Of a DNA stretch of 64,000 nt, positions 6,901-51,244 are shown piece after piece. Positions within the stretch are counted from its first letter, which is position 1; each line of letters begins with the position of its first letter. This stretch comes from an uncultured Candidatus Saccharibacteria bacterium. GTDB lineage: Bacteria; Patescibacteriota; Minisyncoccia; Ryanbacterales; HO2-45-13. The stretch lies in the NCBI GenBank assembly GCA_964354975.1, contig CAYHBS010000001.1:56282-120281 (forward strand). The letters run 5' to 3'. The notes under the pieces were generated by a model. The model was not told the origin of the DNA and did no database searches. It saw only the letters and a program-made list of their open reading frames with translations. Both the position numbers and the translations under genes were made by a program.

Positions 6901-8685
6901 TTAATTCACAGATGCACGAATACGCCGGACACCCGCACTGGATGCCTCTTCCTTTAGTATAACGAATTTTCCGATTTCTGACGTGTGTGTAACGTGCGGC
7001 CCTCCGCAGAACTCTTTTGAAAATACATCTCCTGTTTTTTCGTCATGCACCGTATAGACGGAAACAATTTGGGGATATTTATCTCGGAAGAAATACAGCG
7101 CTCCGGAATCTTTTGCCACCTCATATGGCAGCTCTTCCGAAGTCATGATGTAATCATTTGTAACGACGCCGTTCACGAGTCGCTCCACTTCTGCAAGTTC
7201 CTCCGGTGATACTTTGCGGGGAAACGAAAAATCAAATCGCGTGCGCTCGGCGGTAATATCTGACCCCATTTGTTTTACTTCATCCCCCAGCACCTTGCGC
7301 AGTGCCGCCTGCATGAGATGCGTTGCAGTGTGCAAACGAATTACCTTCTGCATTTCCTCCTCATTTGCCGCTTTGAGTTCTCCGGTATTTAATATGAGGC
7401 CGTGTCCGCCGAACTTCTTTTCACTGCCCGCCTTTGATTTTTCTTGATGCTCCTGAAATTCCTTTTTAAATGATTGTTCATCCACATTGATGCCGCGCTC
7501 TGTGGCGAGCTCGCGCGTCAGCTCCATCGGAAATCCATAACTCTGATATAAATCAAACGCATTTTTCCCTGAAATATTTCCCCGCCCGACAATTTTTTCA
7601 AACTCGCTAATGCCGCGCGTGAGCGCCCTGTGAAATTTCTGGTGTTCATCAAATATCACTTTCTGAATATGCGCGATGTCTGCGCGAAGATTCGGGTAAG
7701 GGAGCGCGTAGATGTCAGCGACCGTTGAAATAAGTGTACCGAGCGTTTCATTGGTGATGTGCTGTTGATACATCATCCGGCTCACGCGACGAATTAAACG
7801 ACGGAGCACATATCCGCGCTCCGCGTTAGATGGCAGCACACCATCACCAACCAAAAATACCGACGCGCGGATATGATCGGCAATAATGCGACGCTCTCGT
7901 TCCGGGATCTCACTCACAATATTCATGAGCGGTGCAAATATATCTGTCTCGTAGCTCGAAGAAAATCCTCCCAGTACCATCAGGAGTCGCTCAAATCCCA
8001 TTCCGGTGTCTACGCCGGGTGTTGGTAATTGTTGAAGCTCTTTTCCAGGTGCGCGTGAAAGTAATTCATCTCTGGTGCCAGGATAGATATATTCGTTAAA
8101 CACCAGGTTCCAAATTTCAATTGCGTCTCCTTTTGCGTTTTTCACATATATTTCTGTTGTCGGTCCGCACGGCCCGGAGTTTCCCGTTGGCCCCCAAAAC
8201 ACATCGTCCATTCCTTGTTCGCGAATATCGGTCATACCAAGCGACGTCCAAATATCTCGCGACTCCGTATCCTTTGGTACAATGTCGGAGCCCTCAAAAT
8301 AGGTTACGTACGCGATGGATAACTTGAGTACTTGTGTAATGTAATCATGCGCAAACGTAATCGCTTCTTTTTTGAAATATGCGCCGAAACTGAAATTCCC
8401 CATCATTTCAAAAAAAGTATTGTGCGAGTCGTCTCCCACTTCCTCAATATCAGAGGTACGAAATGATTTTTGTATCGTCGCCGCGGCGAGCGTACCAAAG
8501 TCGCGCAGTGCGTCTGCGTCTCCGGTAAAATACGGCTTGAATTGTTGCATTCCCGCAGTAGTGAGGAGCACCGACGGATCGTCCGGAATCAAACTACTTG
8601 AGGCCACAATAGTGTGTCCTCGCTCTTTCATAAAATTGAGAAATCCATCTCGTACTTCCTGTGATGTCATATATTTATTCTGCAA
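6901..8685 (-). CDS. alaS: Alanine--tRNA ligase, short form (594 aa, lacks C-terminal C-Ala domain)
   Basis: N-terminus FLNFMKERGHTIVASSSLIPDDPSVLLTTAGMQQFKP is the class II AlaRS signature; editing-domain HTATHLM motif present. Confidence 0.88.
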   Translation of the reverse strand: MQNKYMTSQEVRDGFLNFMKERGHTIVASSSLIPDDPSVLLTTAGMQQFKPYFTGDADALRDFGTLAAATIQKSFRTSDIEEVGDDSHNTFFEMMGNFSFGAYFKKEAITFAHDYITQVLKLSIAYVTYFEGSDIVPKDTESRDIWTSLGMTDIREQGMDDVFWGPTGNSGPCGPTTEIYVKNAKGDAIEIWNLVFNEYIYPGTRDELLSRAPGKELQQLPTPGVDTGMGFERLLMVLGGFSSSYETDIFAPLMNIVSEIPERERRIIADHIRASVFLVGDGVLPSNAERGYVLRRLIRRVSRMMYQQHITNETLGTLISTVADIYALPYPNLRADIAHIQKVIFDEHQKFHRALTRGISEFEKIVGRGNISGKNAFDLYQSYGFPMELTRELATERGINVDEQSFKKEFQEHQEKSKAGSEKKFGGHGLILNTGELKAANEEEMQKVIRLHTATHLMQAALRKVLGDEVKQMGSDITAERTRFDFSFPRKVSPEELAEVERLVNGVVTNDYIMTSEELPYEVAKDSGALYFFRDKYPQIVSVYTVHDEKTGDVFSKEFCGGPHVTHTSEIGKFVILKEEASSAGVRRIRASVN

Positions 8686-11064: not shown

Positions 11065-12000
11065 TTATTCGCCTCCCGTACGCTTGCTTGCCTCACGTGC
11101 AATATCAAGAATGCGTTCAAATATTTCGCGCTGTGCGGAGCGCTCTCGTACAAGTGACTCATAAATCTGTTGTAACTCTTTTGTACCAAGTGTTGCTGCG
11201 GTCGTGCTTGCAGTGATCGCGGCGAGACGCGTAGAAGACGAATCAATCAGGGCTTGTACACCATCAATCTTTGTAACAATGCCGGACATATCAACCCCGG
11301 ACGCAATATATGCCTCTGAAGCGGTACGCTGCTCGGTTACGCGCGCCTGCAGGGTGGCAAGAGATTGCCTACGCATCACGCCAATGTGCGCAAGCACCGT
11401 AAGGCGTCGTATATGCACCCGCGTAAACTCTTGTCTTTGTGTCAACAGCGTTTTGGTGATTTCTTTGATCATATCCACTGATTCCGCAGAGCGTACTTGC
11501 GTCTCAAAAGATCGCAGTGACGCAATGTCCGCGTTCACCAGTGCAGTGAACGATGTGAAAATGTCCTCGTCAATAAATGGCAATTGTTCCATTTGGGCGC
11601 GAAGGTACTCGTCGTATGAAATAAGCGCGCCAATATATTCGAGTAAATATTGCCGTTGATCGGTTACGGTGCGCTGTGAGGCCTTGAGCGACGTACGAGC
11701 GTAATTAAGCTGCACCAGTGATGAACTAAACTGGCTCTGTGTTTTTGATTCATTCACCGCGTCTCGAGAACGCTCAAGCACATGTTCAGAATCCTTGCGC
11801 TGTTCAATGCGTTCATACAATTTTCCGATAAGAGCCCGCGCGGACACGTGAAGACTTTCGGCGTCGTCCGATTGATCGTCCGCGTCCTCACGCGCAAACA
11901 CCGAGATACCAAACATGTTCCAATCAAAGAACGCTGAAGCGCGTGCCGGCGTTGCGATAATGGTGAGTATGATGATCAGTGGTAGTGCGAGTTTTTTCAT
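11065..12000 (-). CDS. Secreted coiled-coil protein, hypothetical
   Basis: 311 aa; signal peptide MKKLALPLIIILTIIATPARASA; heptad-rich body; downstream of the anti-sigma gene. Confidence 0.6.
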   Translation of the reverse strand: MKKLALPLIIILTIIATPARASAFFDWNMFGISVFAREDADDQSDDAESLHVSARALIGKLYERIEQRKDSEHVLERSRDAVNESKTQSQFSSSLVQLNYARTSLKASQRTVTDQRQYLLEYIGALISYDEYLRAQMEQLPFIDEDIFTSFTALVNADIASLRSFETQVRSAESVDMIKEITKTLLTQRQEFTRVHIRRLTVLAHIGVMRRQSLATLQARVTEQRTASEAYIASGVDMSGIVTKIDGVQALIDSSSTRLAAITASTTAATLGTKELQQIYESLVRERSAQREIFERILDIAREASKRTGGE

Positions 12001-13247: not shown

Positions 13248-13721
13248 TTAGAGTAATGGCGCACCGGGCGTGACCGCTTCAATAGGTGCCACAAGAACGG
13301 GTTTTTCACCCTCTTTTGCCGCAAGTATCATGCCGTTGCTCTCTATGCCTTTCAGCGTACGCGCTGCCAAATTGGTCGTAAAGATGACGGTTTTGCCAAT
13401 CAAAAAATCCTTTTCATACCACGGCTTAATCCCCGAAACAATCGTGCGTGTTTCTGATCCGAAATTCACGGTGAGCTTGTAGAGCTTGTCCGATCCCTCA
13501 ATGTCTTCTGCGTTTTCGATTATGCCTGCTTGAATGTGCACGCGCTGGAGTTCTGCCAGCGAGATACGATCTTTCCCCGAAAACATACTGTCAAACACCG
13601 CCGAACAATCTGCGCAGATATGTTTTTTGGTCGCAACACCATCCTTTGGTACACCAAAATAAAGTGCTCCTGGGGCGTTGAGCTCTTTCTTACAAAAATT
13701 ATAAGTGATTTGAAGGCTCAT
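13248..13721 (-). CDS. Stand-alone tRNA-binding domain protein (Trbp111/CsaA/MetRS C-terminal-like OB fold)
   Basis: The C-terminal 110 aa (ISLAELQRVHIQAGII..DKLYKLTVNFG..IVSGIKPWY..LIGKTVIFTTNL..RTLKGIESNGMILAA) match the tRNA-binding arm. The ORF-track N-terminus (to 13940) overlaps tRNA-Trp and was trimmed to Met at 13721; an alternative start at 13586 gives a 112-aa protein. Confidence 0.65.
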   Translation of the reverse strand: MSLQITYNFCKKELNAPGALYFGVPKDGVATKKHICADCSAVFDSMFSGKDRISLAELQRVHIQAGIIENAEDIEGSDKLYKLTVNFGSETRTIVSGIKPWYEKDFLIGKTVIFTTNLAARTLKGIESNGMILAAKEGEKPVLVAPIEAVTPGAPLL

Positions 13722-13804
13722 GCGGGGAATAAGGGAATCGCAAGCACTATGAGGGCTTATAATTTTCGCGCTACAAACATATGCGATACACACGGCGATT
13801 CCGG

Positions 13805-13876
13805 CGGGAGTGCCAGGATTCGAACCTGGATAGCTGGTTTTGGAGACCAGAGTCTTAGCCGTTGGACGACACTCCC
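13805..13876 (-). tRNA. tRNA-Trp (anticodon CCA)
   Basis: Reverse complement GGGAGTGTCGTCCAACGGCTAAGACTCTGGTCTCCAAAACCAGCTATCCAGGTTCGAATCCTGGCACTCCCG: 7-bp acceptor stem, anticodon loop CTCCAAA, T-loop GGTTCGAATCC. Confidence 0.85.
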
Positions 13877-13941
13877 CTCTACACTCAAAGACAGCTTTTA
13901 GCTTATAGGTTTTAGTGCGGCACGCCAAGCCGCGTCTCACA

Positions 13942-15217: not shown

Positions 15218-15805
15218 TTATGGTAGCTCTGCGATGAACGCACACAGCTTATCACGAAGTTTTCGATTATTAAAGTGCACAGTGAGTACTCCATATTTCG
15301 CTTTATGTTTATAGTTGCCCACTCCTCGCGCCGGCGTGATAATCACTTTTTGAAACGCTGCCCGCGGAGCTGATATCTCACGCCTCCAATATGCGAGCGC
15401 AACCGATGGATTGGTGTCTGAAAATATTTGCAGGCCATATCTTAACTTCGCTTTATGTATACGAAATCGCTGTTCAAGAAATTTAAGAAAGTATCTAATG
15501 AGTTTTGGGTCGCTATTTCCAAGTCGCACTGAAGAAAGATTACGCTTTGTTCCTTCGCCCCAATATAAACCTATGCCTAAACCTTCCAAAAATGCTTCTT
15601 CTCGAATTTTAGGTGCAGCATATGAAAACGGATCACCTCCTGGGTTATGTTTAATATATACCGCATCCCGAATAGCACGTTTAGGAATTTCGTGCTTTTT
15701 TAGCCAATAATTAATGGTGCTTGTCCCTTTTTTCGTACGCTGGGCAATTTCCTTTGCCGACAACTGCTCACGTACATACATTTGCAACAGCGTTAATTTA
15801 TCCAT
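15218..15805 (-). CDS. HTH + LAGLIDADG-like (I-SceI-type GIGLxxGxG motif) homing-endonuclease-like protein, paralog of 29858-30487
   Basis: 195 aa; N-terminal HTH (LSAKEIAQRTKKGTSTINYWLKKHEI); EGLGIGLYWGEGTKRN resembles I-SceI EAGIGLILGDAYIRSR (from memory); stop codon 54 nt upstream of the intron-containing tRNA-Thr. Confidence 0.6.
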   Translation of the reverse strand: MDKLTLLQMYVREQLSAKEIAQRTKKGTSTINYWLKKHEIPKRAIRDAVYIKHNPGGDPFSYAAPKIREEAFLEGLGIGLYWGEGTKRNLSSVRLGNSDPKLIRYFLKFLEQRFRIHKAKLRYGLQIFSDTNPSVALAYWRREISAPRAAFQKVIITPARGVGNYKHKAKYGVLTVHFNNRKLRDKLCAFIAELP

Positions 15806-16061
15806 ACATCTAAATATATAAAATTACAAACTACACATTATTTAATTGATATACATTAATTTACCTGTAGTATAATAGTAACATATTAGGATATCGGTAC
15901 GCCACGCGTTCATGTGTGTGAGGAGTCTTGGAGTCATCGGGAATGATGAGATGAGTTAGAGGCACATATGTAATATAATATTTACGAGTGCACTGGTTCC
16001 CTGTACAGTATCAAGCACATACGTTAGTGGCCCCCTACACGGGACACTGATGATAAATAAT

Positions 16062-16145
16062 GCGTCGGTGGCGGAGTGGTCAATCGCACCAGACTGTAAA
16101 TCTGGCGGCCTTAGGCCTACGAAGGTTCGAATCCTTCCCGGCGCA
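16062..16145 (+). tRNA. tRNA-Tyr (anticodon GUA), long variable arm
   Basis: GCGTCGGTGGCGGAGTGGTCAATCGCACCAGACTGTAAATCTGGCGGCCTTAGGCCTACGAAGGTTCGAATCCTTCCCGGCGCA. Confidence 0.85.
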
Positions 16146-16304
16146 CACATTGCCAAAATCGGAGCACGGCTCCGGTTTTGTTGCTATGTGTAGTGATCGC
16201 GAGGGATTCGAAGGCGAGCACGCAAGGGTTCCATCAGTAGATGGAAACGTGCGAGCGTGGTCAGGCGGAGAAATGTTTCGACGGAAACATTTCGAGCGCT
16301 TGAC

Positions 16305-16324
16305 CGAATCCTTCCCGGCGCACA
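16305..16324 (+). repeat. Exact 20-nt direct repeat of the tRNA-Tyr 3' end (cgaatccttcccggcgcaca; first copy 16128-16147)
   Basis: seen in sequence; 157-nt spacer contains a 10-bp perfect hairpin gaaatgtttc gacg gaaacatttc (16270-16293). Confidence 0.8.
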
Positions 16325-16498
16325 ATATAAAAAATACTCGACATGCGTCGGGTGTTTTTTATATATCTCTTGAAAGTTGAATTCACCGTTTTTGAGCTTG
16401 ACTTCTTTCTAACCAATAATATGCTATTCTGTGCGAGGTATCGAGCTGGGTTAAAGTAGCTCGGTTATACATTTCAAACCCGAAACGGAGGTATAGTC

Positions 16499-16756
16499 AT
16501 GACGCAGTTCTTGCCAATCGCCACACTGCTAATGTCATTTGTGAGTTTCCTGTTTATGTTGTTGGTGACATTCGTCTCGCCTCTCGGCCAGTCCAAGTCG
16601 TTCTACTTCCTTTGTGGCGAGTCAGCTTTCATCACAGCGATCATCTTCGGAGCACTGTCGGTACATAAAGTCCACAGGTTCAACCCTTTCGAAACGATTC
16701 TCTGGTTCATCGTTGGTTCCATAATGTTTGCGTACTCGGCGTGGTTCACTAACTAA
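16499..16756 (+). CDS. Small membrane protein (3 predicted TM), hypothetical
   Basis: 85 aa; SD GGAGG 6 nt upstream; hydrophobic. Confidence 0.6.
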   Translation: MTQFLPIATLLMSFVSFLFMLLVTFVSPLGQSKSFYFLCGESAFITAIIFGALSVHKVHRFNPFETILWFIVGSIMFAYSAWFTN

Positions 16757-16862: not shown

Positions 16863-16897
16863 GACGCCCACGCAATTGCGGGGCGTCCTTTTTTCTT
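16863..16897. terminator. Bidirectional rho-independent terminator (gacgccc acgcaattgcg gggcgtc + T-run)
   Basis: seen in sequence; directly follows the clpB stop (minus) and the + strand membrane protein gene. Confidence 0.7.
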
Positions 16898-19574
16898 AAT
16901 GCACTGCCGCTTTCTTTTGGTGATGCCGGGCATGCTGCTTTTTTCCAAGCACTTCGGTGTGTAGCTTACCATCCTTCACCGACACCTTCAGTGTACTCCC
17001 CGACTCTGCCTCCCCACTGACGATATGACCGGCAAGCGTGTTCAGCAGTGTATTTTGAATAAGTCGCTTGAGCGGGCGTGCGCCATACTGCGGACTATAT
17101 CCCTCTTTGGCAAGATATTCTTTTACGTCTTTCCCGATCATAATTTTCATTCCGCGGTCGGCAAGACGCTTTTCCACGCGCATCAGCTGAATATCCACAA
17201 TCTGCACGAGGTGCGTCCTCGTGAGATTATTGAATACCACAATTGCGTCAAAGCGATTGAGGAATTCCGGACGAAATCGATTTTCGAGCGTTTCAAAGAT
17301 TTTGCGCCGAATTTCATCGTCGTGAATTTTGTCTTTATCATCATTCTCGTTTGAGAGATCAAACCCTAGGGCTCCAGCTTCACGTACAAGTTCTGACCCG
17401 ATATTCGAAGCCATAATAATGACCGTATTCTTAAAGTTGACGTGCCTCCCTTTCGCATCGGTGAGTCGCCCATTATCAAGAATCTGAAGCATAATGTTAA
17501 ACACTTCGGGATGTGCTTTTTCAATTTCATCGAAAAGCACCACGGAGTATGGACGGTGACGAATGATTTCAGTCAGTTGGCCTCCCTCTTCAAATCCAAC
17601 GTACCCGGGAGGAGAGCCAATAAATTTTGATACCGCGTGCTTCTCCATGTATTCAGACATGTCGACGCGCACCAGCGATTTTTCATCGTTGAACATAAAC
17701 TCCGCGAGCGAACGTGCGAGTTCGGTCTTCCCCACGCCCGTTGCTCCGAGGAACATAAATGAACCAATGGGGTGATCTTCCTCTCCAATTCCGGCGCGGT
17801 TGCGTCGCACCGCGTTTGCGATTTCACGCACTGCTTCATCTTGACCGATGACACGCTTGCGCAGCACCTCTTCCATTTTCATGAGCTTCTTTGCCTCTTC
17901 CTCGAGCATGCGTTTTACGGGAATTCCTGTCCAGCGCGCAACTACCTCGGCGATCTCTTCGGCATCAATTTCTTCTTTGAGAATTTTGCGATTTGACTGC
18001 AGTCTGCGCAGGCGCTTTTCATCTTCGCGCAGTTGCTTCATGAGATCAGGAATGCGCGAATAACGAATCTCCGCTACTTTGGTGTAGTCTGAAACACGCT
18101 CGGCGTTTTCGGATTCAAGCCGGAGACGTTCAAGATCTTTCTTTGCCTCCTGCAAACGTGTAATAGTCTCCTTCTCATTATTCCATTTCAACTCAATAGA
18201 CTTCTCGCGCTCTTTGAGTTCCGCGAGTTGTCGCTCGATGGAGCGAATATCGCGTTTACGATCTTCCTCACGCTTCAGTGCCTCGCGTTCTATCTCAAGC
18301 TTCATAATATCCTTGCGAATCACCTCAAGATCTCGTGGCACGCTGTCAATTTCTAATCGCAGTGCGGACGCCGCTTCATCAACAAGATCGATGGCTTTAT
18401 CTGGTAAAAATCTATCGGAGATATATCTACTCGAAAGCTCTACCGCAGATTGAATCGCTTCATCAGTGATTTTAATTCCATGAAAGACTTCGTATTTTTC
18501 TTTCAGACCCCGAAGTATTGCCACTGCGTCGTCCGCCGTGGGCTCTTCTACATATACCGGCTGGAAGCGGCGCGCGAGTGCGGGATCTTTTTCGATGTGT
18601 CGCTGATATTCTTTGAGTGTGGTGGCACCAATCGCATGGAGCTCGCCACGCGAGAGCGCGGGCTTGAGTAAATTTGCTGCGTCCATCGCCCCTTCCGCGG
18701 CTCCCGCACCAACAATGGTGTGAATTTCATCAATAAATAATATGAAGTGATTTTTTGAACGCTCAATTTCGCGTAGTACCGCCTTCAATCGCTCTTCAAA
18801 TTCCCCCCGATACTTTGTGCCCGCAACGAGCGCGCCAAGATCAAGTGAGATGAGCTCTTTGCCACGGAGGCCTTCTGGAACTGTTCCTGCGACGATCCGC
18901 TGTGCGAGTCCATCGACAATGGCGGTCTTTCCTACTCCGGCCTCCCCAATAAGAATGGGGTTATTTTTTGTGCGACGAGAGAGCACCTGCATCACACGAC
19001 GAATTTCGTCCTCGCGACCAATGACCGGATCTAATTTATCTTGACGCGCAAACTCCGTGAGATTGCGCGCATATTTCTCGAGCACTTGATATTTCGATTC
19101 TGGCTCTGCATCGGTCACTCGCTGTGAACCGCGAATACTTGCAAGCACTTTCAGCACAGTTTCCTTATCAACTTGGAATCGCTCAAGAATTTCCTTCGTT
19201 TTTGACGGTGTCTCCAAAAATCCAAGAAACAAATGCTCGGTTGAAATATATTCATCTTGTAGTGACGCGGCTGCTTTGTGCGCCTCTTCCAGTACGCGTG
19301 CGAGCTCTGGTGTTAAATAGAATTGCTGGGATGGTGTGACCACTTGTCCGCCCTTCCTGGAGTCGAGCGCGTCAAGCACATAATCAGTGAATTGTTGATA
19401 ATCAATTCCCAGCTTTTCAACCAGCGGGATAATCATCCCCTCGTCTTCTTGCAGGAGCAGTGCCCCAAGCACGTGGAGTGCGTCGAGCGATGTTTGCCCG
19501 CGCTCAAGCGCAAGTTCATGTGCCTTGCGAAGCGCTTCTTGTGCTTTGATAGTGAAATTCTGAAATGGAGGCAT
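16896..19574 (-). CDS. clpB: ATP-dependent chaperone ClpB
   Basis: 892 aa; Clp_N, two AAA+ modules ([22 protein letters not shown]) and long coiled-coil M-domain. Confidence 0.93.
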
Positions 19575-29852: not shown

Positions 29853-29881
29853 CTGAGCTAAGGTAGCAAATTTTTCGAACG
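29853..29881. repeat. Direct repeat (29/30 nt, 1 mismatch + 1 indel) of the tRNA-Thr(UGU) 5' end plus 14 nt of its upstream region (first copy 29724-29753)
   Basis: ctgagctaaggtagcaaatttttcgaacg vs ctgagctaaggtggcaaattttttcgaacg; contains the stop codon and last codons of the adjacent homing-endonuclease-like gene. Confidence 0.8.
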
Positions 29882-30487
29882 ATATTCGTCAATCCAGTAG
29901 TTCAATCGATCCAGCAATAATACGTCCGAATACCGCACTGAAACTGTACCATACGCCGATAATCTTTTGTAGCTTCCGCGCGAAGTATTGTGAATTCGCG
30001 ATTTACTGAATTGTGTCAGTGGAATTTGCACCGTACGCGCCCAGAATTCTTTCAATTCTCTCTCTGATTGATGTGGGTAATAGTGCATCAAAATCCTCAA
30101 GCGAGTCTCATCAATTCCACAAATCTTCCTTAAGAAACGTACAAACAGTAATATGAGGTCCGGATCGCTATTTGAAAGCGCCACTGAGGTTCCCGACTTC
30201 GTGCCCTCACCCCAATACAACATAATCCCTGCAACGCTCAACAACGTCTCCTCCCGCGACATATTCACCTTTACCGAATGTGCCTTCTTGTGATGCTTTG
30301 TTCTATGTAACTCCCGTGCAGCAGCTGAAGTGTCTCTGCGTGAAATTTTTGAATCAATTAAAGTGGTGCGCACCCGATACGGCGTCATCTTTAAAGCTTC
30401 TGCAATCTGCTGGACTGACAACTTTTGCTCAGTGTATAGTCCTATAATTTTAGCTCGCTCGGTCCGCACCAGTTCTTCTCGCCTCAT
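29858..30487 (-). CDS. HTH + LAGLIDADG-like homing-endonuclease-like protein, paralog of 15218-15805
   Basis: 209 aa; HTH (LSVQQIAEALKMTPYRVRTTL); SVAGIMLYWGEGTKSGTSVALSNSDPDLILLFVRFL aligns with EGLGIGLYWGEGTKRNLSSVRLGNSDPKLIRYFLKFL of the other copy (about 35% identity overall). Confidence 0.6.
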   Translation of the reverse strand: MRREELVRTERAKIIGLYTEQKLSVQQIAEALKMTPYRVRTTLIDSKISRRDTSAAARELHRTKHHKKAHSVKVNMSREETLLSVAGIMLYWGEGTKSGTSVALSNSDPDLILLFVRFLRKICGIDETRLRILMHYYPHQSERELKEFWARTVQIPLTQFSKSRIHNTSRGSYKRLSAYGTVSVRYSDVLLLDRLNYWIDEYRSKNLLP

Positions 30488-42709: not shown

Positions 42710-45700
42710 TTACTGCGCGAGTATTAACTGTAACTGACGCTGGAGTTCGAGTAACCGTTCACGAAGCGACTCAATCTGTGTGGGAGTAGAGGAGCTCGTA
42801 AGTCCGGGAGGTGGAGCACCGGAGCCTGCACATTGACCAACGGTGGCGCCACTTGCAAGTGCGGCTCTCGTACGCGGTCCCACTCCCCCATGTCCGGTGG
42901 TGGTGGGGTCTCCGCTACATACGCCAAGGCGTTCACATTGGTACCGTTTGAGTGCACGCTCGGTGAGTGCGCCAAAGTAGTCAGATTCCTCGCCGGGTGC
43001 TCCGGGACCGGAGGAAGCGACGGTATGTCCAATCTTGTTCAGGTACTGTTGGAGCGAGTGTACATCAGCCCCAAATTCGCCAAAGACGAGCCAGCGCGTG
43101 ATTGTGATACCGGGTGTGGTGACACTGCAGACTCCGGGATACGCAGATCCCGGTCCTTCAGTAATAATTTCTGATCCATCACTGTTGTAGTTTGCAGAAG
43201 GGCGCGTTGCGACTGTGGGGAGAGAAACATTTCCATGCACATCAAGCGCAAAGATGGCGTAAAAGGTATTGGGCACTGTAACTGCTCCGTCCACAATGGC
43301 TGTCATGGGACCTTCATATATAATCGCGGATCCATCAGCCCCGGAGGCACTCGTCGGGGCGTTTCCTGCTTTCCGCAAAATCCGCACACGCGAGAAATCA
43401 GAATCAGAAGGATTTACCCAGTGGAGTGTCGCAGTGCCATCGCCGTTCTGAACCGCGCTAAATGCAGTCGGTGAGAGTGGAGCGATATAGTCGGAGGTTC
43501 CTCCTCCACTCCCAACACTTCCTCCTCCGACAGTACCTGTGATGGTGCCGGGAAGAATGCGATATGAGATGAATTCTGGGTCAGAAAAAGTTCCTTCATC
43601 ATCGTATGTGAATACCGTGTAGTAGTACGCCGTGCCCACAACTGCAGAGGTGTCCGTATAGGTGGTTCCGGTGATGTCTGCGAGCGCAGTAGCGCGCGAT
43701 GGAGTGAGGATGAAATCGGTGTCGCTTCGCATCACAATGGTTCCTGCATAAAATTCATACTCCGTTGGATTATTCCAGCGTAGAATAATGGAACCACTTG
43801 AAGCGGTGAGCTCCGTGACCTTCGGGGATTTCGGGAGACGTGCAACCGTGTACGTACCTATAATGCTGGAGGTGCGCGTATTTCCAGCGGCATCTCTCGA
43901 TGATACTTGGACGTAATAGATGGTCTTGCGGTCGAGGTTATGAATGGTAACGGTGTGGGACGTCACATACCTCGGATCTTCTTCAGTGAGCTCCCCGAGA
44001 TCTCCGCTGGTACCATATGCCACTCGAGAGGTTGCGGGTTCATTCGTCGTCCATGTGACCACTAGCTGGTCGCCGCGCGAGGAGTCTGCCAAGAGATTCG
44101 AAATGGTAGGCGCGGTGGTATCAGTGATGACGGGGTCTGCTTCACTGTCGTCCGTGGCACTCGTGCATCCGGGGTCGTTGGAGGTAGCAGTGCCGTAGTC
44201 AATCTTGCCGTCTCCGTCATTGTCGATGCCATCCGCACACGCCACCGGGATCACGATATTCACAACAACACTGTCCGTGGACGCGACTGCGCCGGCTTGA
44301 TAGCACGTAAGAGCGTAGGTGGTAGCTTGGATGAGCGTAGGAGTGGTTTGCGTACCAGCAGTCCCCGTCCATGCAGTTCCGGAGGGGTTTGACACCACGG
44401 TGCAAGAACCTGCGTTTGTAGACGACCACTGAATAGCGGCCGTGGTACCGGTGTTGAGTGAAATAGAACCTCCGGTGTATGTGCCGCTGTTTGAGGGACG
44501 CGCCTTGATATCAGCAGTGCTCACGGGATTGATCTCACTGGTGTCGGTGGCACTTGTGCATCCAAAGTCTGCCGGATAGTCGATCTTGCCGTCACTGTCA
44601 TTGTCGAGACCGTCTGCGCAGACTGCGAGCGGCGCGTTGTATTCGTCGTTGTCGGTGCTCGAGGAGCATCCGAGATCAGCGAGATCAATCTTCCCGTCTC
44701 CGTCATTGTCGAGACCGTCGGAGCAGGTATATACAGGAGGTGGTGCGTTGTATTCATCGGTGTCGGTGAGACTCGTGCATCCGGGGTCGTTGTTTGTTCC
44801 GGTGCCAAAGTCAATCTTGGTGTCTCCGTCATTGTCGAGGCCGTCGGAGCAGGCGGGAGGTGGTGCGGTGACAATGGTGAGGCCATCTTGTATGGACCAA
44901 CCGTCAGCGCCAGATGCAAAATCAATATTCCACCACCAAAATGGAGTCCCACTGAAGACGGCGTACTTGGGTCCTGCAATTACCGTTCCATTTTGATTGT
45001 CGAGTTGATCCCCGATATCCGTACCCCCGGGGATGTCGCGCACGTTCAGGAATGTTGTTGTCGTGACTTTCACGGCGTTCCCAATCGCAAACTTCGTACT
45101 CACGGGGGTGGGATTGGATTCATCGTTGTCGGTTGCGAGCACACATCCATAGTCCGCCATGTCTACTTTTCCATCGCCGTCATCATCGATGCTGTTGGCG
45201 CAGAGTGCCGCTACAGGAGGAGGCGTCGTCACACTTACATTACAGCTCGCGCTCGTACTGTTTGACGTGACCGAAACACTCTTAGTGCCGGTGGTGCTGT
45301 AGGTAGTCGAGAATGTTGCTCCCGTGCCTGTGGAAGGAGTGCCTCCGGTCGCAGTCCAGGAGTAGGTGCCGTTTCCATTTGCGGCGGTAAATGAGGCGGA
45401 GGCGCTGGTGTATACCGACTGGGTTGTGGGACTGCAGGTCACTGGGGATATAGGAGATGGTGCGTTGTATTCATCATTGTCGGTGAGACTCGTGCATCCC
45501 GGGTCATTGCTCGCCCCTGTACCGTAGTCGATCTTGGTGTCTCCGTCATTGTCGAGGCCGTCGGAGCAGGCGGCTATGGGTGCGTTGTATTCATCCGTAT
45601 CAGTTGAAGATGAGCAACCAGGATCTGTCGGATAGTCTGTTTTCCCGTCGCCGTCATTGTCGATGCCGTCTGCGCAGACGGCAGGGGGAGGAGGAGTGGT

Positions 45701-48700
45701 GCCCTCGCTCATCGTCACTGTTTTGGTGGACATGTCGTAGGTGACGGTGCGACCATCTACCACAATGCGCAGAACGTTTCCGGAGACAATAGGACTTCCC
45801 ACGACAGGGGCAACTCCGGTTGCGGAGGGATAGAGGAGGGTGACCTGGACAAATCGATTTGACTCGGCATTTGTGGAGAGTTCCACATAGCGGTCAAGCA
45901 CTGCTTCTTCACTTCCGGCTGCAGCGTTCAGTGTTGTTGGACCGCGCAACGTCATCGCTTGATTCGAGTAGACGGTGTTGATGAAGACTTTATTGGTAGT
46001 TCCTGGTTTCGTGAGCGTGAGATTGTTGCCTCCGGGAAGTGAGGGGGTCACGTCTGCGGAATAGTGGTGGCGCTGCTGCCAACGTCGAGCCACGGAACTC
46101 GCGAGATCGTCAATGATCACATAAAATCCATCACTGTTACTCTTGCGCGCAAAGACAAAGTGGCGATCAGCATCAGTGATGGTATCAGGATCAATGGAAC
46201 CATCCGCAAATTCGCCGTGTCGTCGATATGCTTCCCCCAGATCTCCTGCAACGTGGTACATATTCCCCACTCGTTCGTTTTGCGTAATGGAAGCGACTTG
46301 TGGAGAATAACCTTGTAATGTTGGGTTGGAATTATGCTGATACCCCGTTGAATGACATGCGGAAAGTGTGCTATTACACGCCATCACTGGGTTGTGCGCT
46401 CGGCTGGACTGCAAATAAGCATACCCACTACTGTCATATCCTCCGGTGTTGAAGAAGGTGTCCGTAAGAAAGCGTACGCCAAAGGCGTTCAGGATATATC
46501 CTCCCTCATCAGAGTGGCCATGGAATCCACCATGGTTGCCTACCTTTGAAACTAATTGAATATCATTCGTCTGTTCAAATCCGGTGCGCATAAATATTTG
46601 TCCAGATCCTCGTGTTCCAGGATCCACTCCTGGGGCATTGTGTACGCGCACAAAGTCGAGCTCTCCTGCGGGCGCGTTCGATGGCCTCACTTCGGGAATC
46701 GATTTCCCCCACAGCATGATGGTGAGTAGGTCGTCAGTTTCGTAGTCCGCGCGAATATTTGTGGTGGTCATGGCGCCAATTCTTCTCCGATCCATTTCAT
46801 TCCAGTACCACATTGCAGCGCCATCGTTGTAGTACGCGGCGTTCATCGCGTAGGAGGCACGCTTTGAGAGTCCATCGCGACCGTCACCAAACCCAGCTGC
46901 ATTATTAAGATTTGGTGCGGTAATGTGCATGGTATATTCACCAAAACGTTGCAAGATCGGCTTTCCATTAATAATTCGGTATCGGAACAAATCTACACCA
47001 GCATAGTTATTAAGTATGTGGTGCCAGAGATACATATTACTTGTAACTACCGACTGGGTGTAATTGTACGGTTCATACTCGGACCCGGTTGGATCAATAT
47101 TATAGTTCAAGAAATATTTCATCATCGCTTCCCCCTTTGTGATGAGTGATGCGGGCGTGGGACCAGATCCATATCGTGTATAGTTTTTGAGCAGAGTCCC
47201 TGCGCCGTACACCGAACCTACCGCGTGGTACCATTTATTCCCCTTTCCTCTGGGCTGCGAGAGATCTCCCCAGAAATAATCTGTGGACACACTCACCGCT
47301 TCCGCATAAAACAAATCTTCGAGCCGATTACGAATAGAGAGCTCTGATGATGTGGTAAACGAATCGTATGCAATATCCATTGCAACAACCATAGGACTAA
47401 ACACCCCGAGTTCGTGGAGATCAATCAAATTTGGATCCGATGCAGTCGGTTGATTAGGAAACGCGCTGTAGTTGGAGAATCGCGTGAGGGCCGCTTTCAC
47501 CGCAGACATCATTGACGCATCATTTGCAATCGTTGCGCAGATTGCGACGTCACGTACTTTCGGAGCATCATAGAATCCATCGCGTACTGAATATCCAGAG
47601 CCAAATCCACTTGCCGGAAACACTGAATTTTGTACTGCAGATTTCTGACTATCGCAGTCAGCCTTAAACGCAAGCCAATATTTGTTGTTGACTAATGCGC
47701 TGTTGTTGACTTTTGCACGGATATCTACGAGATCTTGATCAGTAAATAACAAATACGGATGGTTTCCGCCATTTCCATTATTCCCTCCTCCCGTCACGGG
47801 TGGTGTAGACACACTCACACTGCAACTTGCGGTCGTGCTGTTTGAAGTCACGGAAACACTCTTGGTACCCGTCGTACTATATGTAGTTGAGAAAGAAGCG
47901 CCAGATCCCGTGGAAGGAGTACCTCCGGTGGCGGTCCAGGTGTAGGTGCCGTTGCCGTTTGCGGCCGTAAACGTAGCAGAAGCACTGGTGTATACCGACT
48001 GTGTTGCGGGACTGCAGGTCACTGGGGATGCGGGAGGAGGAGGATTGTATTCATCAGTATCGGTGAGACTCGTGCATCCGGGGTCGTTGTTTGTTCCGGT
48101 GCCGTAGTCAATCTTGGTGTCCGCGTCATTGTCGAGACCGTCAGCGCAGGCAGTAGGGGGAGGAGGCGCGGTGACTACGGTGAGTCCGTCCTGTATAGAC
48201 CATCCATCTGGAGCATTCGTGTAGTCAATATTCCACCACCAATAGTTCACGCCGCTATAGACGGCAAATTTAGGACCTTCCACTACGGTACCTGTAGCAC
48301 CAGATGGTTGTCCGGTGCCATCACCGACACTCGCTCCTCCTGCGGGCATGCGCACATTCACACCAGCGGTGTTGCTCACGCGAACGGTATTCCCCACCGA
48401 AAATTTCGTGCTCACGGGAGTCGGATTCGATTCACTCGTATCTGCGGGACTTGCACATCCCGGGTCTGCCATATCGATGAGGGTGTCTTCTCCGTCTGTT
48501 CCGTCCACTCCATCGGAGCAATTTGTGGTGGTCACTGGAGGCGTACTCACACTCACACTGCAACTTGCGGTCGTGCTGTTTGAAGTCACGGAAACACTTT
48601 TGGTACCGGTACTCGTATATGTAGTCGAGAAAGAAGCACCTGATCCGGTTGATGGAGTTCCACCGGTAGCAGTCCAGGCGTAGGTACCATTCCCATTTGA

Positions 48701-51244
48701 TGCGGTGAACGATGCAGACTGTCCGGTAATGACTGATTGTGACGTGGGACTACATGCGACGGGAGACGCGGGAGGTGGTGCGTTGTATTCATCATTGTCG
48801 GTGAGACTCGTGCATCCGGGATCGTTTGAGGTTGCTGTACCAAAGTCAATCTTGGTGTCTCCGTCATTGTCGAGGCCGTCAGAACAGGCGGCGGGGGGTG
48901 TTGTTCCTCCACCACTCATCGTTATCGTTTTTGTGGATTGGTTATAGGTAACGGTTCGTCCCTCAACGGTGAGACTGATGGAGCTCCCTGAAATAACAGG
49001 TTCAGGAACGGTTGGTGCAACACCAGTCGCCGATGGGTAGAGTAGTGTCATTTGGACAAAACGACCGGAAGAATTATTGGTGGTGAGTTCTACGTAGCGG
49101 TCAAGCACCGATTTTTCACATCCACCTCCGGAACAATTCAACGTCGTCGGCCCCCTCATGGTCATTGATTGATTTGCATAGATGGCGTCAATAAACACTT
49201 TGTTCGACGTGCCATTTTTGGTGAGCGTAAGTTTATTTCCTCCCGGAAGTGTGGGGGTGACGTCTTCTGAATAATGCTGTCGCTGTTGCCAACGACGCGC
49301 CACGGAACTTGTGAGGTCATCGATAATTACATAAAATCCATCGCTACTACTTTTGCGAACAAAGACGAAGTGGCGATCTGCGTCGGTAATGGTGTCGGGG
49401 TCAATAGTGGTGAGCCCATCTTCACCGTGACGCCGGTATGCCGCCCCAAGATCTGCCGCAACATGATACATATTTCCCGAGCGTTCATTGAGCGTGATGA
49501 CCGCGTCGGGTGCAGAATACCCTTGAATTTGCGGATTAGAATTGAGTCTATATCCGCTCGCATGGCATTCGGTGAGGTCACTACTGCATGCCATCACGCC
49601 GTTATGCGCTTTACTGCTCTGCAGATAGTAGTATCCACTACTATCATACCCGCCGGTATTGAAGAAGGTGTCGGTGAGAAATCGTGCCCCAAATGCGTTC
49701 AGAATATATGCGCCTTCGTCGGAGTGTCCGTGAAAGCCATTATAATCTCCCGCTTGTGAGGCAAGTTTAATATCATTTATACCTTCAAATCCGGTGCGCA
49801 TAAAAATATGCCCAGAACCCCATTGTCCTTGCGCAGAGCCCGCTGAATCATACGCTTTTACCAGGTCAATCTCGCCTGCCGGCGCACTACTTGGTCGTAC
49901 TTCAGAAATTTCTTTCCCCCAGAGCGCAATAGGGAGGATGTCGGTGGTTTCATATTCTCGAAGAATATTTGTGGTCGTGAGGGCTCCGACCGTTCGGCGA
50001 TCCATTTCTTTCCAGAACCACATCGCCACGCCGTCGTTATATTCAACCGCATTCATTGCATATGGTAGGCGACTCAACAAGACGTCGCGTCCATCTCCAA
50101 ATCCTATGGCGTGCTCCAAATCGGGAGCGGTCACATGCATCGCATACTCGCCGAATCTCTGAAGAATTGGCTTTCCATCGACGACGCGGTAACGCGCGAG
50201 GTCCGTTCCGGAATAGTTTTTGAGGATACGCTGCCAAAGATAGAGGTTACTAATGACCACGGATTGTGTATAGTTGTATGGTTCATATTCCGATCCATCA
50301 GGATCGAAGTCCTTGTCGAAGAAATATTTCATCATCGCCTCCCCCTTGGCAGTCAACTGTGCGGGAGTCAGCCCCGATCCATATCGTGTATACCCTTTGA
50401 GCAAGGTACCGGTGCCGTACACGATGCTCATGTATCCCATCCAGTGATTCCCCTTCGATCTTCCAAGAGACATGTCTGCGTAGGTTGTGTTGAGCACATT
50501 TATTGTCTGCGCGTACAACAAATCTTCGAGTTTATTCCGCGTGGTGAGATCGGTCGCAAGTGAATCATATGCAATATCCATCGGGATGATCATCTGACTG
50601 AACGCTCCAACATCGTAGAGTTCTATCTGTCCGTCCGTATCCACAATGGGGCGATAATTGGAAAACCGAGTGAGCGCGGCTTTTACGGCCGACATCATGG
50701 ACGCATCATTTGCAATCGCGGCACATACCGCAACATCAGTCACCTTGAGTGAGTCTTGATACCCACGAGACGTTGAATACCCCGATCCAAACCCACCCGT
50801 TGGAAACACCGAATTTTGCACTTCGGATTTTAGTCCGTCGCAACGAGATTTGAATGCGAGCCAAAATTTGTTGTTGATTGTTGAGGTGTCATTTACTTTA
50901 GCTCGAATACCTACGAGCTCTGCATCCGTGAACAAGAGATATGGATGATTCCCACCGTTCCCTTGATTTCCACCAGAGGTAGTTTGCGCCACCGCACCAC
51001 CTGCAAAGAAACCCTGAATAGCACCGAGCACTCGTTCAAGAATAGAGACGGTTGAGGCGATCATGTCGATCGTTGCTACGTCCGTGATTGCCGCGCGTGC
51101 GACGTTGGGAGGTACGGTGATCGAAATAATCGAGAGAACGAGTAAAAAAGAAAACAGCGCACGCGAGATGTGCCCGTGAGATGTGCTATTCATAAAAAAC
51201 AGTGAGTAATGTGGCGCTAATAATGTATATATTGTAGCAAGCAA
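42710..51244 (-). CDS. Giant secreted multidomain protein (2844 aa): two heparinase II/III-like polysaccharide-lyase modules, Cys-bracketed Asp-rich Ca-binding-type repeats, three Thr/Ser-rich Ig-like repeats, FN3-like domain, C-terminal peptidoglycan-binding domain
   Basis: Signal peptide. Each lyase module shows NHPYLLFTD...FHGHSDEG.YILNAFG..FLTDTFF.TGGYDSSGY.YLQSS.AHN.VMAC (Hepar_II_III-like). CxDGxDNDxDxKIDxxxxxxxDPGCTSxTDxDEYN repeats occur at least 9 times. C-terminal ALTERALKRYQCERLGV is PG_binding_1-like. Confidence 0.85.
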   Translation of the reverse strand: MLATIYTLLAPHYSLFFMNSTSHGHISRALFSFLLVLSIISITVPPNVARAAITDVATIDMIASTVSILERVLGAIQGFFAGGAVAQTTSGGNQGNGGNHPYLLFTDAELVGIRAKVNDTSTINNKFWLAFKSRCDGLKSEVQNSVFPTGGFGSGYSTSRGYQDSLKVTDVAVCAAIANDASMMSAVKAALTRFSNYRPIVDTDGQIELYDVGAFSQMIIPMDIAYDSLATDLTTRNKLEDLLYAQTINVLNTTYADMSLGRSKGNHWMGYMSIVYGTGTLLKGYTRYGSGLTPAQLTAKGEAMMKYFFDKDFDPDGSEYEPYNYTQSVVISNLYLWQRILKNYSGTDLARYRVVDGKPILQRFGEYAMHVTAPDLEHAIGFGDGRDVLLSRLPYAMNAVEYNDGVAMWFWKEMDRRTVGALTTTNILREYETTDILPIALWGKEISEVRPSSAPAGEIDLVKAYDSAGSAQGQWGSGHIFMRTGFEGINDIKLASQAGDYNGFHGHSDEGAYILNAFGARFLTDTFFNTGGYDSSGYYYLQSSKAHNGVMACSSDLTECHASGYRLNSNPQIQGYSAPDAVITLNERSGNMYHVAADLGAAYRRHGEDGLTTIDPDTITDADRHFVFVRKSSSDGFYVIIDDLTSSVARRWQQRQHYSEDVTPTLPGGNKLTLTKNGTSNKVFIDAIYANQSMTMRGPTTLNCSGGGCEKSVLDRYVELTTNNSSGRFVQMTLLYPSATGVAPTVPEPVISGSSISLTVEGRTVTYNQSTKTITMSGGGTTPPAACSDGLDNDGDTKIDFGTATSNDPGCTSLTDNDEYNAPPPASPVACSPTSQSVITGQSASFTASNGNGTYAWTATGGTPSTGSGASFSTTYTSTGTKSVSVTSNSTTASCSVSVSTPPVTTTNCSDGVDGTDGEDTLIDMADPGCASPADTSESNPTPVSTKFSVGNTVRVSNTAGVNVRMPAGGASVGDGTGQPSGATGTVVEGPKFAVYSGVNYWWWNIDYTNAPDGWSIQDGLTVVTAPPPPTACADGLDNDADTKIDYGTGTNNDPGCTSLTDTDEYNPPPPASPVTCSPATQSVYTSASATFTAANGNGTYTWTATGGTPSTGSGASFSTTYSTTGTKSVSVTSNSTTASCSVSVSTPPVTGGGNNGNGGNHPYLLFTDQDLVDIRAKVNNSALVNNKYWLAFKADCDSQKSAVQNSVFPASGFGSGYSVRDGFYDAPKVRDVAICATIANDASMMSAVKAALTRFSNYSAFPNQPTASDPNLIDLHELGVFSPMVVAMDIAYDSFTTSSELSIRNRLEDLFYAEAVSVSTDYFWGDLSQPRGKGNKWYHAVGSVYGAGTLLKNYTRYGSGPTPASLITKGEAMMKYFLNYNIDPTGSEYEPYNYTQSVVTSNMYLWHHILNNYAGVDLFRYRIINGKPILQRFGEYTMHITAPNLNNAAGFGDGRDGLSKRASYAMNAAYYNDGAAMWYWNEMDRRRIGAMTTTNIRADYETDDLLTIMLWGKSIPEVRPSNAPAGELDFVRVHNAPGVDPGTRGSGQIFMRTGFEQTNDIQLVSKVGNHGGFHGHSDEGGYILNAFGVRFLTDTFFNTGGYDSSGYAYLQSSRAHNPVMACNSTLSACHSTGYQHNSNPTLQGYSPQVASITQNERVGNMYHVAGDLGEAYRRHGEFADGSIDPDTITDADRHFVFARKSNSDGFYVIIDDLASSVARRWQQRHHYSADVTPSLPGGNNLTLTKPGTTNKVFINTVYSNQAMTLRGPTTLNAAAGSEEAVLDRYVELSTNAESNRFVQVTLLYPSATGVAPVVGSPIVSGNVLRIVVDGRTVTYDMSTKTVTMSEGTTPPPPAVCADGIDNDGDGKTDYPTDPGCSSSTDTDEYNAPIAACSDGLDNDGDTKIDYGTGASNDPGCTSLTDNDEYNAPSPISPVTCSPTTQSVYTSASASFTAANGNGTYSWTATGGTPSTGTGATFSTTYSTTGTKSVSVTSNSTSASCNVSVTTPPPVAALCANSIDDDGDGKVDMADYGCVLATDNDESNPTPVSTKFAIGNAVKVTTTTFLNVRDIPGGTDIGDQLDNQNGTVIAGPKYAVFSGTPFWWWNIDFASGADGWSIQDGLTIVTAPPPACSDGLDNDGDTKIDFGTGTNNDPGCTSLTDTDEYNAPPPVYTCSDGLDNDGDGKIDLADLGCSSSTDNDEYNAPLAVCADGLDNDSDGKIDYPADFGCTSATDTSEINPVSTADIKARPSNSGTYTGGSISLNTGTTAAIQWSSTNAGSCTVVSNPSGTAWTGTAGTQTTPTLIQATTYALTCYQAGAVASTDSVVVNIVIPVACADGIDNDGDGKIDYGTATSNDPGCTSATDDSEADPVITDTTAPTISNLLADSSRGDQLVVTWTTNEPATSRVAYGTSGDLGELTEEDPRYVTSHTVTIHNLDRKTIYYVQVSSRDAAGNTRTSSIIGTYTVARLPKSPKVTELTASSGSIILRWNNPTEYEFYAGTIVMRSDTDFILTPSRATALADITGTTYTDTSAVVGTAYYYTVFTYDDEGTFSDPEFISYRILPGTITGTVGGGSVGSGGGTSDYIAPLSPTAFSAVQNGDGTATLHWVNPSDSDFSRVRILRKAGNAPTSASGADGSAIIYEGPMTAIVDGAVTVPNTFYAIFALDVHGNVSLPTVATRPSANYNSDGSEIITEGPGSAYPGVCSVTTPGITITRWLVFGEFGADVHSLQQYLNKIGHTVASSGPGAPGEESDYFGALTERALKRYQCERLGVCSGDPTTTGHGGVGPRTRAALASGATVGQCAGSGAPPPGLTSSSTPTQIESLRERLLELQRQLQLILAQ

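Follow-up and report, generated by a model that had tools for sequence, protein, structure and literature searches.

The stretch of DNA analysed here, hereafter the window, spans 64 kb from an uncultured bacterium of the Patescibacteria, or candidate phyla radiation (CPR), and includes a tRNA-Tyr gene that is followed on the same strand by a second copy of its own 3' end. Between the gene and the copy lie a terminator-like hairpin, designated T1, and most of a compact structured unit, which the copy itself closes and which is followed by a second terminator-like hairpin, T2 (Table 1). This work deals with that unit, with its relatives behind other tRNA genes, and with the resemblance of its layout to the RtT units of the Escherichia coli tyrT locus.

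Anatomy of the repeat and the unit

The repeated 20-mer, CGAATCCTTCCCGGCGCACA, occurs as two exact copies on the plus strand of the window with a period of 177 nt, the first (X1) running from T-loop position C56 to the end of tRNA-Tyr(GTA); no third site was detected in the window with up to three mismatches allowed, and dinucleotide shuffles (n = 100) gave a mean count of 0.01 and never two copies. An earlier account drawn from the letters alone (the sequence-only reading) had pointed to this exact duplication and to a strongly structured spacer behind the tRNA, and both withstood these controls, as the segment 16147-16370 folds at -108.2 kcal/mol (z = -9.2), with none of 200 shuffles equally good. 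The perfect 10-bp hairpin that it listed (gaaatgtttc/gacg/gaaacatttc) is present as the distal part of the helix P5, and its second stem (cggagc/acg/gctccg) is the core of T1, immediately 3' of the tRNA. What it took for a weak hairpin after the second copy is actually T2, a strong terminator-like structure with a run of six U.

The second copy of the repeat (X2) constitutes the 3' arm of the unit and pairs with an upstream 5' arm (X'), thereby closing a three-way junction with the stem-loops P4 and P5 inside. The 3' strand of this closing helix is supplied by the copied 3' strands of the tRNA's T-stem and acceptor stem, with GAGGGAUUC paired to GAAUCCUUC, followed by three 3-bp blocks that are split by single unpaired bases. 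A 3-nt junction, GAA, separates the 5' arm from P4, and the last base pair of P5 involves C16305, the first base of X2. Folded alone, the unit reaches -67.3 kcal/mol (z = -6.2). Hairpins equivalent to T1 stand behind the tRNA in nearly all related units described below. The prefix of T2, AATATAAAAAA, is similar to the tRNA-Tyr terminators of a related locus (L059; loci are numbered with the prefix L throughout), whereas T1 is dissimilar to them; this is a weak hint that an insertion comprising T1, the 5' arm and the core has separated the tRNA from its native terminator.

Table 1. Positions of the tRNA-Tyr gene and of the parts of the element in the window.
Feature	Position	Strand	Basis
tRNA-Tyr, anticodon GTA, CCA not encoded	16062-16146	+	ARAGORN; Rfam RF00005, 62.1 bits
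Repeat copy 1 (X1): T-loop C56, T-stem 3' strand, acceptor 3' strand, discriminator and 2 further nt	16128-16147	+	Exact 20-mer; alignment
T1, terminator-like hairpin, GC stem 16160-16174, AAAAU/GUUUU flanks	16152-16184	+	-17.7 kcal/mol, z = -4.0
5' arm (X'), imperfect complement of the tRNA 3' end	16189-16209	+	Minimum free energy (MFE) folds
P1 5' strand, 3-bp blocks with single unpaired bases between	16189-16199	+	MFE folds
P3 5' strand, GAGGGAUUC	16201-16209	+	MFE folds
P4 stem-loop, invariant tandem G.A at base (GC-GA-G...C-GA-GC)	16214-16256	+	Alignment A2, alifold, pair counts
P5 stem-loop, GGUCAGGCG/CGCUUGACC and second tandem G.A loop	16259-16305	+	Alignment, pair counts, fold
P5 distal 10-bp hairpin with conserved GACG loop	16270-16293	+	Alignment, fold
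Repeat copy 2 (X2), the 3' arm	16305-16324	+	Exact 20-mer; folds
Whole unit	16188-16326	+	Covariance model R1, 110.3 bits, E = 7e-30
T2, intrinsic-terminator-like hairpin, stem 16336-16353, six U 16355-16360, A/U-tract flanks	16325-16364	+	-20.6 kcal/mol, z = -8.9

A conserved, strand-specific fold

The fold is conserved, is supported by covariation and is strand-specific. Seventeen homologues were aligned (alignment A2, 17 sequences) and used to build the covariance model R1. RNAalifold on A2 recovered P4 and P5, with compensatory changes in 18 of the 30 pairs, and all eight of the distal P4 pairs covary with such changes. For the full structure, arms included, 84% of the alignment cells are paired, and sliding the partners by 1-3 columns lowers this to 31-44%. 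The covariation score amounts to 0.405, compared with 0.166 +/- 0.014 for shuffled alignments, none of 500 being as high. The outer helix is supported in the window and in A2 by folds and by pair counts (columns 14-21/123-130). Several unpaired or non-canonical positions are invariant, namely the GA/GA at the base of P4, the GA/GAG within P5 and the GACG loop. Among the core pairs, G.U combinations (44) far outnumber A.C combinations (5), and a single G.U pair persists in all 17 sequences; therefore, the fold belongs to the tRNA strand, either as RNA or as that single DNA strand.

Two population single-nucleotide polymorphisms fall within the unit. C16288T, seen in two samples, turns a G-C pair at the tip of P5 into G.U and keeps the pairing, and G16226T, seen in one sample, alters a G conserved in all 17 sequences of A2.

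Units directly behind tRNA genes in Patescibacteria

We surveyed 80 CPR clpB loci together with the window, in which ARAGORN identified 169 tRNAs. A downstream copy of the tRNA's own 3' end, defined as its last ~15 nt with at most two errors at ~100-400 nt downstream, was found for 20 of these 169 (Tyr 9/43, Leu-TAG 4/14, Cys 4/29 and Trp 3/23). When exact copies of at least 13 nt were counted, there were 18 downstream and none upstream, and the reverse strand gave 2 or 0. Inspection of the tRNA-Tyr trailers revealed extra units with a truncated 3' copy, so that ~14 of the 43 tRNA-Tyr loci beside clpB are occupied, with differing core types. The sequence-only reading had held that a spacer invariably present in all relatives would speak against it; presence varies among relatives instead.

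The order of parts is constant, namely a terminator, the 5' arm, an optional hairpin (P2), a T-arm complement (GGAUUCGAA), two helices and the copy of the tRNA end, usually followed by a second terminator, with a unit size of ~115-160 nt in the family. At least four core types (A to D) were distinguished by eye, and the types other than A obey the same arm logic. Type A is represented in this set by the window unit and by the unit of L082, which stands behind tRNA-Trp. In B-type units, N and N' in AAAG-N-CGGAG...GAG-N'-CGGGG covary in nine of nine sequences, and types A and B appear to be related, judging from the junction and the G.A-based foot of P4 that their sequences share.

Two side observations concern this family. 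The optional hairpin, which separates the acceptor-like part of the 5' arm from its T-like part, is near-constant (GCAAGCAAACUGCUUUGCUUGC and variants), and is carried by units of various core types behind various tRNAs (L037 9851-10075, L032, L115, L046, L024 and L208). In L026, at 11779-11925 (-), the A-type model gives a weak match (20 bits, E = 0.012) on the strand opposite to a nearby tRNA-Trp.

To extend the A-type set, metagenomes were scanned with a degenerate core pattern, which returned 120 loci, mostly chance matches in GC-rich DNA that were discarded; true units were sorted by their TTGAC/TTGGC tail, by an upstream tRNA and later by covariance model score. The true A-type units were 16 in metagenomes and one in a Patescibacteria metagenome-assembled genome (MAG). 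Their conserved core, which the window unit shares, reads GAAGGCGAG...CGAGCGUGG..AGGCGGAG...CGAGCGCUUGAC, with P4 and P5 covarying. R1 gave 17 hits besides the window, at 83-138 bits, recovering all pattern-derived units and adding new ones in L128 and L183; no second R1 copy was found in the window. The family lives directly behind tRNA genes in Patescibacteria and uncultured relatives. We found no description of such elements in CPR in the literature.

The linkage to tRNA genes is constant: in all 16 units with enough upstream sequence, a tRNA ends 82-120 nt before the core motif. The tRNAs concerned are those for His, Glu-CTC (two units), Asp, Ser-GGA, Ser-GCT, Gly-GCC (two units), Gly-TCC, Arg-GCG, Arg-CCT, Leu-CAA, Trp and Ala-GGC, and the covariance model added Arg-TCG (L128), which places the A core behind at least 14 tRNA species, Tyr included. 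Whichever tRNA adjoins the unit, both arms match that tRNA. In every unit the bases following ...CGAGCGCUUGAC are the 3' end of the local tRNA from C56; this 3' arm is exact over 19-22 nt in six units (L123, L128, L134, L179, the window and L082), and in the remaining A units it is interrupted or partly decayed and recognisably tRNA-derived. For the 5' arm, the longest run of Watson-Crick or G.U pairs with the cognate tRNA is 8-19, with a mean of 14.2, against 7.6 with non-cognate tRNAs (16 A-type units).

Arrays, nested fragments and turnover

The units form arrays, contain nested fragments and turn over. At the orthologous tRNA-Tyr site, different species carry different core types. Tandem arrays comprise three identical 142-nt units in L043, two units in L042 and two unlike units in L075; in L196 (1746-1950), an A core is immediately followed by a B core, and L191 carries a D-type and then an A-type unit where its relative L123 has only an A-type unit, behind tRNA-Ser. 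In L128 (965-1610), two A units stand behind the adjacent genes for tRNA-Arg-TCG and tRNA-Gly-GCC; they share 60 identical core nucleotides and differ in their arms, T1 hairpins and P5 tips, and nested fragments of further units lie between the two, at the T-loop junction (~1196-1300). This suggests concerted evolution or recent copying of the core within one genome. In the syntenic locus L183, the tRNA-Arg has no unit and the tRNA-Gly-GCC is followed by a B-type unit (7233-7363). Furthermore, the T-loop/T-stem part of the 3' arm shows recurrent short indels in L183, L176, L115, L026 and L152, for example CGA[AAAGCGTACTCGCTGG]TTCTCC, which could be footprints of nested insertion and excision, or a means of breaking the direct repeat.

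On viral contigs, neither the A-type pattern nor the first B-type pattern gave any match; a looser B-type pattern gave 19, of which 18 were due to chance. The sole real one, on an IMG/VR contig of 34.7 kb (L208, 2840-3319), is a degenerate B-type array within ~200 nt of the apparent contig end, and nothing ties it clearly to a phage. BLAST searches against phage and plasmid collections returned nothing relevant.

Genomic setting and same-species contigs

The neighbours of the unit are housekeeping genes: ClpB (16896-19574, -), an HtrA-like protease, a sigma factor and a NUDIX protein, with RpoA, MnmA, ribosomal protein S2 and RF-1 further out. The ClpB has at most 70% identity to that of any GTDB species representative, its best matches all being Patescibacteria/CPR MAGs, and the window matches a contig from the 0.1-um fraction of Hainich groundwater, identical over the 6.6 kb compared. 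The locus is chromosomal and belongs to an uncultured CPR bacterium. Every same-species contig retrieved through two flanking open reading frames (ORFs) carries the unit, which counts against recent mobility at this site, and there is no sign of recent excision among them.

Short-read assemblies of this species break at the element, with three Logan contigs beginning at 16300, two at 16118 or 16120, and one ENA contig stopping at 16293, at the foot of the perfect hairpin; the repeat and the hairpins disturb assembly. Public annotation places a 106-aa protein over tRNA-Tyr and the entire unit (window 16060-16380, +; L226 2426-2746), a call that is almost certainly spurious.

Other features of the window were recorded in passing. 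Two paralogous ORFs with an N-terminal helix-turn-helix (HTH) and a LAGLIDADG-like part, 31% identical to each other, lie at 15218-15805 (-) and 29858-30487 (-) and share the motif G(L/I)xLYWGEGTK; the match to Pfam LAGLIDADG_3 is weak (E = 0.077), and matches to the PHROG category 'HNH endonuclease' are confined to the HTH. One of them adjoins tRNA-Tyr and the other tRNA-Thr, and a homologue in L025 (8807-9340) adjoins tRNA-Tyr. They may represent free-standing genes of the homing-endonuclease kind with a preference for sites near tRNAs; no consistent association with the units was found. Three large ORFs of 2844, 1656 and 1106 aa occupy the minus strand (42710-51244, 53581-58551 and 59459-62779). 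Lastly, the longest ORF for a tRNA-binding-domain protein, 13248-13940 (-), overlaps tRNA-Trp at 13803-13876 (-); public calls give this protein a shorter form of 157 aa in L226 and the full 230 aa in L227, and because of the shorter start and the tRNA overlap, the true start probably lies downstream of tRNA-Trp.

Comparison with known systems

The closest parallel is RtT. The E. coli tyrT locus contains three RtT units scoring 121-134 bits against RF00391, each ending in AATCCTTCCCCCACCACCA, which is the 3' end of tRNA-Tyr, and the Rfam consensus shows the closing pairing GgGaaGGAU/AUCCuuCcC. Like the window unit, RtT lies directly 3' of tRNA-Tyr on the same strand, recurs with nearly the same period (~178 nt, as against 177 nt in the window), ends in the tRNA 3' terminus from inside the T-loop (~19-20 nt; exactly 20 in the window), and has an upstream complement that pairs with this copy and encloses a multi-stem core. 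Tandem repetition is possible in RtT and in the CPR units, and both have attracted a spurious small ORF, tpr in E. coli and the 106-aa call in L226. Unlike RtT, the CPR units have intrinsic-terminator hairpins between them, and occur behind many tRNA species with cognate arms and several core types. The annotation of RtT describes it as a processing product of the tyrT transcript (PMC3318445, citing Bosl and Kersten, 1991), and its mode of action is still termed unknown (bioRxiv 10.1101/2024.07.17.603846). By analogy, the window element appears to work like RtT; it is not a member of RF00391. Shared GA-rich strings such as GGGUGAGGAGCGA were discarded as a sign of RtT homology, their complexity being too low.

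An intact tRNA gene (tDNA) with a displaced 3' fragment is also the mapping signature of tRNA islands (Islander, PMC4383910), and the attachment (att) core of phage Ms6 lies in the T-loop (PMC1762012). The unit resembles such islands in its 3' fragment in direct orientation, in the identity from T-loop to 3' end and in tandem accretion at one tRNA. Unlike islands, it involves 157 nt rather than kilobases, without integrase and without cargo, and the interval is itself conserved and structured, with an inverted copy of the att-like segment. This interval is fully explained by T1, the 5' arm and the core, and its sole ORF is spurious and overlaps the tRNA.

The units also share features with attC sites and integron arrays, cis-mobilizable elements (CIMEs) and miniature inverted-repeat transposable elements (MITEs), the last two being non-autonomous and mobilised in trans. 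The units are likewise small and non-coding, their inverted repeats are imperfect and contain unpaired bases, their fold is specific to one strand, they stand in serial arrays by a fixed site, and many copies are decayed. Unlike integrons and MITEs, they have no linked integron integrase or transposase, and their core bears conserved motifs of RNA type; furthermore, the arms of the units follow the adjacent tRNA, whereas the terminal repeats of MITEs are fixed, and the duplication of ~19-20 nt is not short.

Among RNAs that are released by tRNA processing are mascRNA from MALAT1 and engineered tRNA scaffolds. A helix that resembles the acceptor stem and stops at a discriminator position could attract RNase P, RNase Z or CCA-adding activity, and would thereby define and stabilise a cargo RNA. 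Seen by this analogy, the unit would offer only an acceptor/T minihelix of ~17-19 bp, with the cargo at the position of the T-loop. tRNA-like domains are also present in bacterial Y RNAs (PMC4201824).

Three further candidates were rejected. A retroviral-type primer-binding site does not fit, as the 5' arms complement genomic bases past the discriminator, and CCA only where it is encoded by the gene (L083). Hammerhead and k-turn motifs, considered because of the junction and the G.A loops, were judged unfit by eye in loop sizes and motifs. An aminoacylatable minihelix was considered for the Ala unit (L179), in which G3.U70 is not retained in the arm.

Discussion

Our preferred interpretation, held with moderate confidence, is that 16188-16326 constitutes one intact unit of a widespread, uncatalogued, RtT-like family of structured elements capped by a tRNA end, and that it is a mobile RNA module. 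This agrees with the fallback of the sequence-only reading, which had offered a tRNA-derived small RNA or mini-element as a second choice and which the evidence now favours. The unit would be transcribed by read-through past T1 from the tRNA-Tyr promoter, and its transcript would fold into the three-way junction. Since the closing helix stops at the tRNA discriminator position, the enzymes that trim and process tRNA ends could release the unit in the form of a stable small RNA, as is reported of rtT RNA. As DNA, it may behave as a semi-selfish element through mobile or duplicative insertion at the segment from T-loop to 3' end, where the tRNA would stay intact by virtue of the upstream copy, with T1 as its terminator. 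The matching of the arms might arise by guide-like pairing of the tRNA-conserved T-arm complement followed by compensatory change; by template switching across the T1 and core hairpins, similar to quasipalindrome correction, which would yield an inverted copy of the tRNA end and then a direct one; or by gene conversion.

Several observations weigh against this interpretation. T1 is a credible terminator separating the tRNA from the unit, so that expression of the unit would depend on read-through, and no promoter-like site was found in the stretch from T1 to the 5' arm. The 5' arm can alternatively pair with the real tRNA 3' end across T1, in an 85-nt hairpin of -48 kcal/mol (z = -7.6), and these two pairings make the functional fold ambiguous. 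The 3' arms are truncated or interrupted in many related units, and such frequent damage fits decaying selfish DNA rather than an essential RNA. As to mobility, no recombinase was found adjoining any unit examined, or in the 10 mid-size window ORFs tested, a set that is not exhaustive, and no mechanism was identified for copying the local tRNA end into both arms. Finally, RF00391 (gathering score 45 bits) has no match in the window, nor at E <= 10 on 15800-16600; it is likewise unmatched in 11 CPR loci, and in 5 loci at E <= 10. Rfam scans of the window and of these 11 and 5 loci returned only tRNAs and noise, with no RtT, ribozyme or tmRNA, and R1 gives no match in the E. coli tyrT locus. Because neither model matches in either direction, the kinship with RtT is architectural only and we do not claim homology.

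The alternative that survives best, although we regard it as unlikely, is a mobile mini-element that acts as DNA only: single-stranded arms would mimic the duplex of the tRNA T-loop and 3' end, a recombinase acting in trans would insert the element, and any RNA would be incidental. Insertion of folded single-stranded DNA has analogues in integron attC sites and in attP(+) of CTX phage. The imperfection of the 5' arm with its single unpaired bases fits such a substrate, as do the order of mixed arrays, with newer units nearest the tRNA (L191 versus L123), and the clustering of nested fragments and short insertions in the T-loop part of the 3' arm; T1 would stop transcription of the unit, the excess of G.T over A.C suits a single DNA strand as well as RNA, and the direct repeat begins in the T-loop, as do T-loop att sites (PMC1762012, PMC4383910). 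However, the negative results on recombinases given above tell against it, the invariant tandem G.A and the tetraloop-like GACG loop are typical of tertiary or protein-binding motifs of RNA, and the E. coli analogue accumulates as RNA. Moreover, retargeting to at least 14 tRNAs requires both arms to change, and we know of no integrase system that does this.

It is also improbable that the unit is a cis-acting switch on the tRNA precursor, in which the 5' arm would pair either with the real tRNA end, misfolding it or extending the T1 hairpin, or with the decoy, and a factor bound to the core would choose between them and so tune maturation. The two mutually exclusive folds are both stable (X1-T1-X' at -48 kcal/mol, z = -7.6, and X'-core-X2 at -67 kcal/mol), in L095, L188 and L083 the 5' arm complements the tRNA end perfectly over 17-23 nt while the downstream copy is degenerate, and Rfam places RtT in its cis-regulatory class. 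However, the decision to terminate at T1 comes before synthesis of the 5' arm; multi-copy arrays and decayed forms of the unit exist; a compensatory change in L160 (CAG/CTG) favours pairing with the unit's own 3' arm over the tRNA; and no ligand or protein partner is known.

We consider very improbable that the unit is a decaying tandem duplicate of the tRNA, a functionless pseudo-tRNA that lost the D and anticodon arms and whose T-loop expanded. Its parts can indeed be read as acceptor 5' strand, optional hairpin, T-stem 5' strand, insert, 3' half of the T-loop and tRNA 3' end, and the 5' arms of L024 and L105 retain a wobble base of the tRNA's 5' acceptor strand; nevertheless, one core is common to unrelated tRNAs, strong purifying selection acts on the unpaired motifs of this core while the helices covary, and independent decay could not converge repeatedly on a single architecture.

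The sequence-only reading had itself favoured the footprint of an integrated element (attL/attR) with most of the element lost, and the anatomy it relied on stands, since an intact tRNA gene is followed by a displaced 3' fragment in direct orientation that starts in the T-loop; the loss does not, as the 157-nt spacer is a full-length member of a conserved family (110 bits). The scar of a large prophage or island, nearly all of it deleted, could account for that fragment and for T2 resembling the clade's native tRNA-Tyr terminator while T1 differs, but this explanation is effectively refuted by the family evidence and has only the slightest probability in our view, because the interval is a complete covarying unit of constant layout and length behind many tRNAs, random deletion would not remake one 135-nt structure repeatedly, and neither the phage and plasmid searches nor the check for an integrase that the sequence-only reading proposed found a remnant, in the interval or in the window ORFs tested, all of which are housekeeping genes.

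A bolder reading, which we offer as speculation and think unlikely, is that these units represent a hitherto unrecognised class of mini-mobile elements that can be retargeted or, equally, that they serve as natural 'tRNA-minihelix scaffolds' for a variety of small RNAs; the core would move between tRNA genes, and both arms would be re-templated from the tRNA 3' end next to which it arrives, by base-pair-guided T-loop insertion or by template switching across the hairpins, E. coli RtT being a surviving branch of a broad superfamily. For RtT, which to our knowledge has had no accepted function since 1991, the CPR units provide a comparative handle in the conserved G.A motifs, the modular helices and the obligatory identity with the tRNA 3' end. 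The RtT-type principle is not peculiar to tyrT or to enterobacteria, and a 35-year-old oddity is extended to a distant phylum. For genome analysis, gene calling mistakes the units for small proteins and short-read assemblies break at them, and island finders that interpret any tDNA fragment as marking the end of an integrated element would be misled by them. Within the minimal genomes of Patescibacteria they are a recurrent, unannotated structured RNA or mobile DNA and, if their arms are indeed re-templated or guide-like, they would represent a new way to target tRNA genes.

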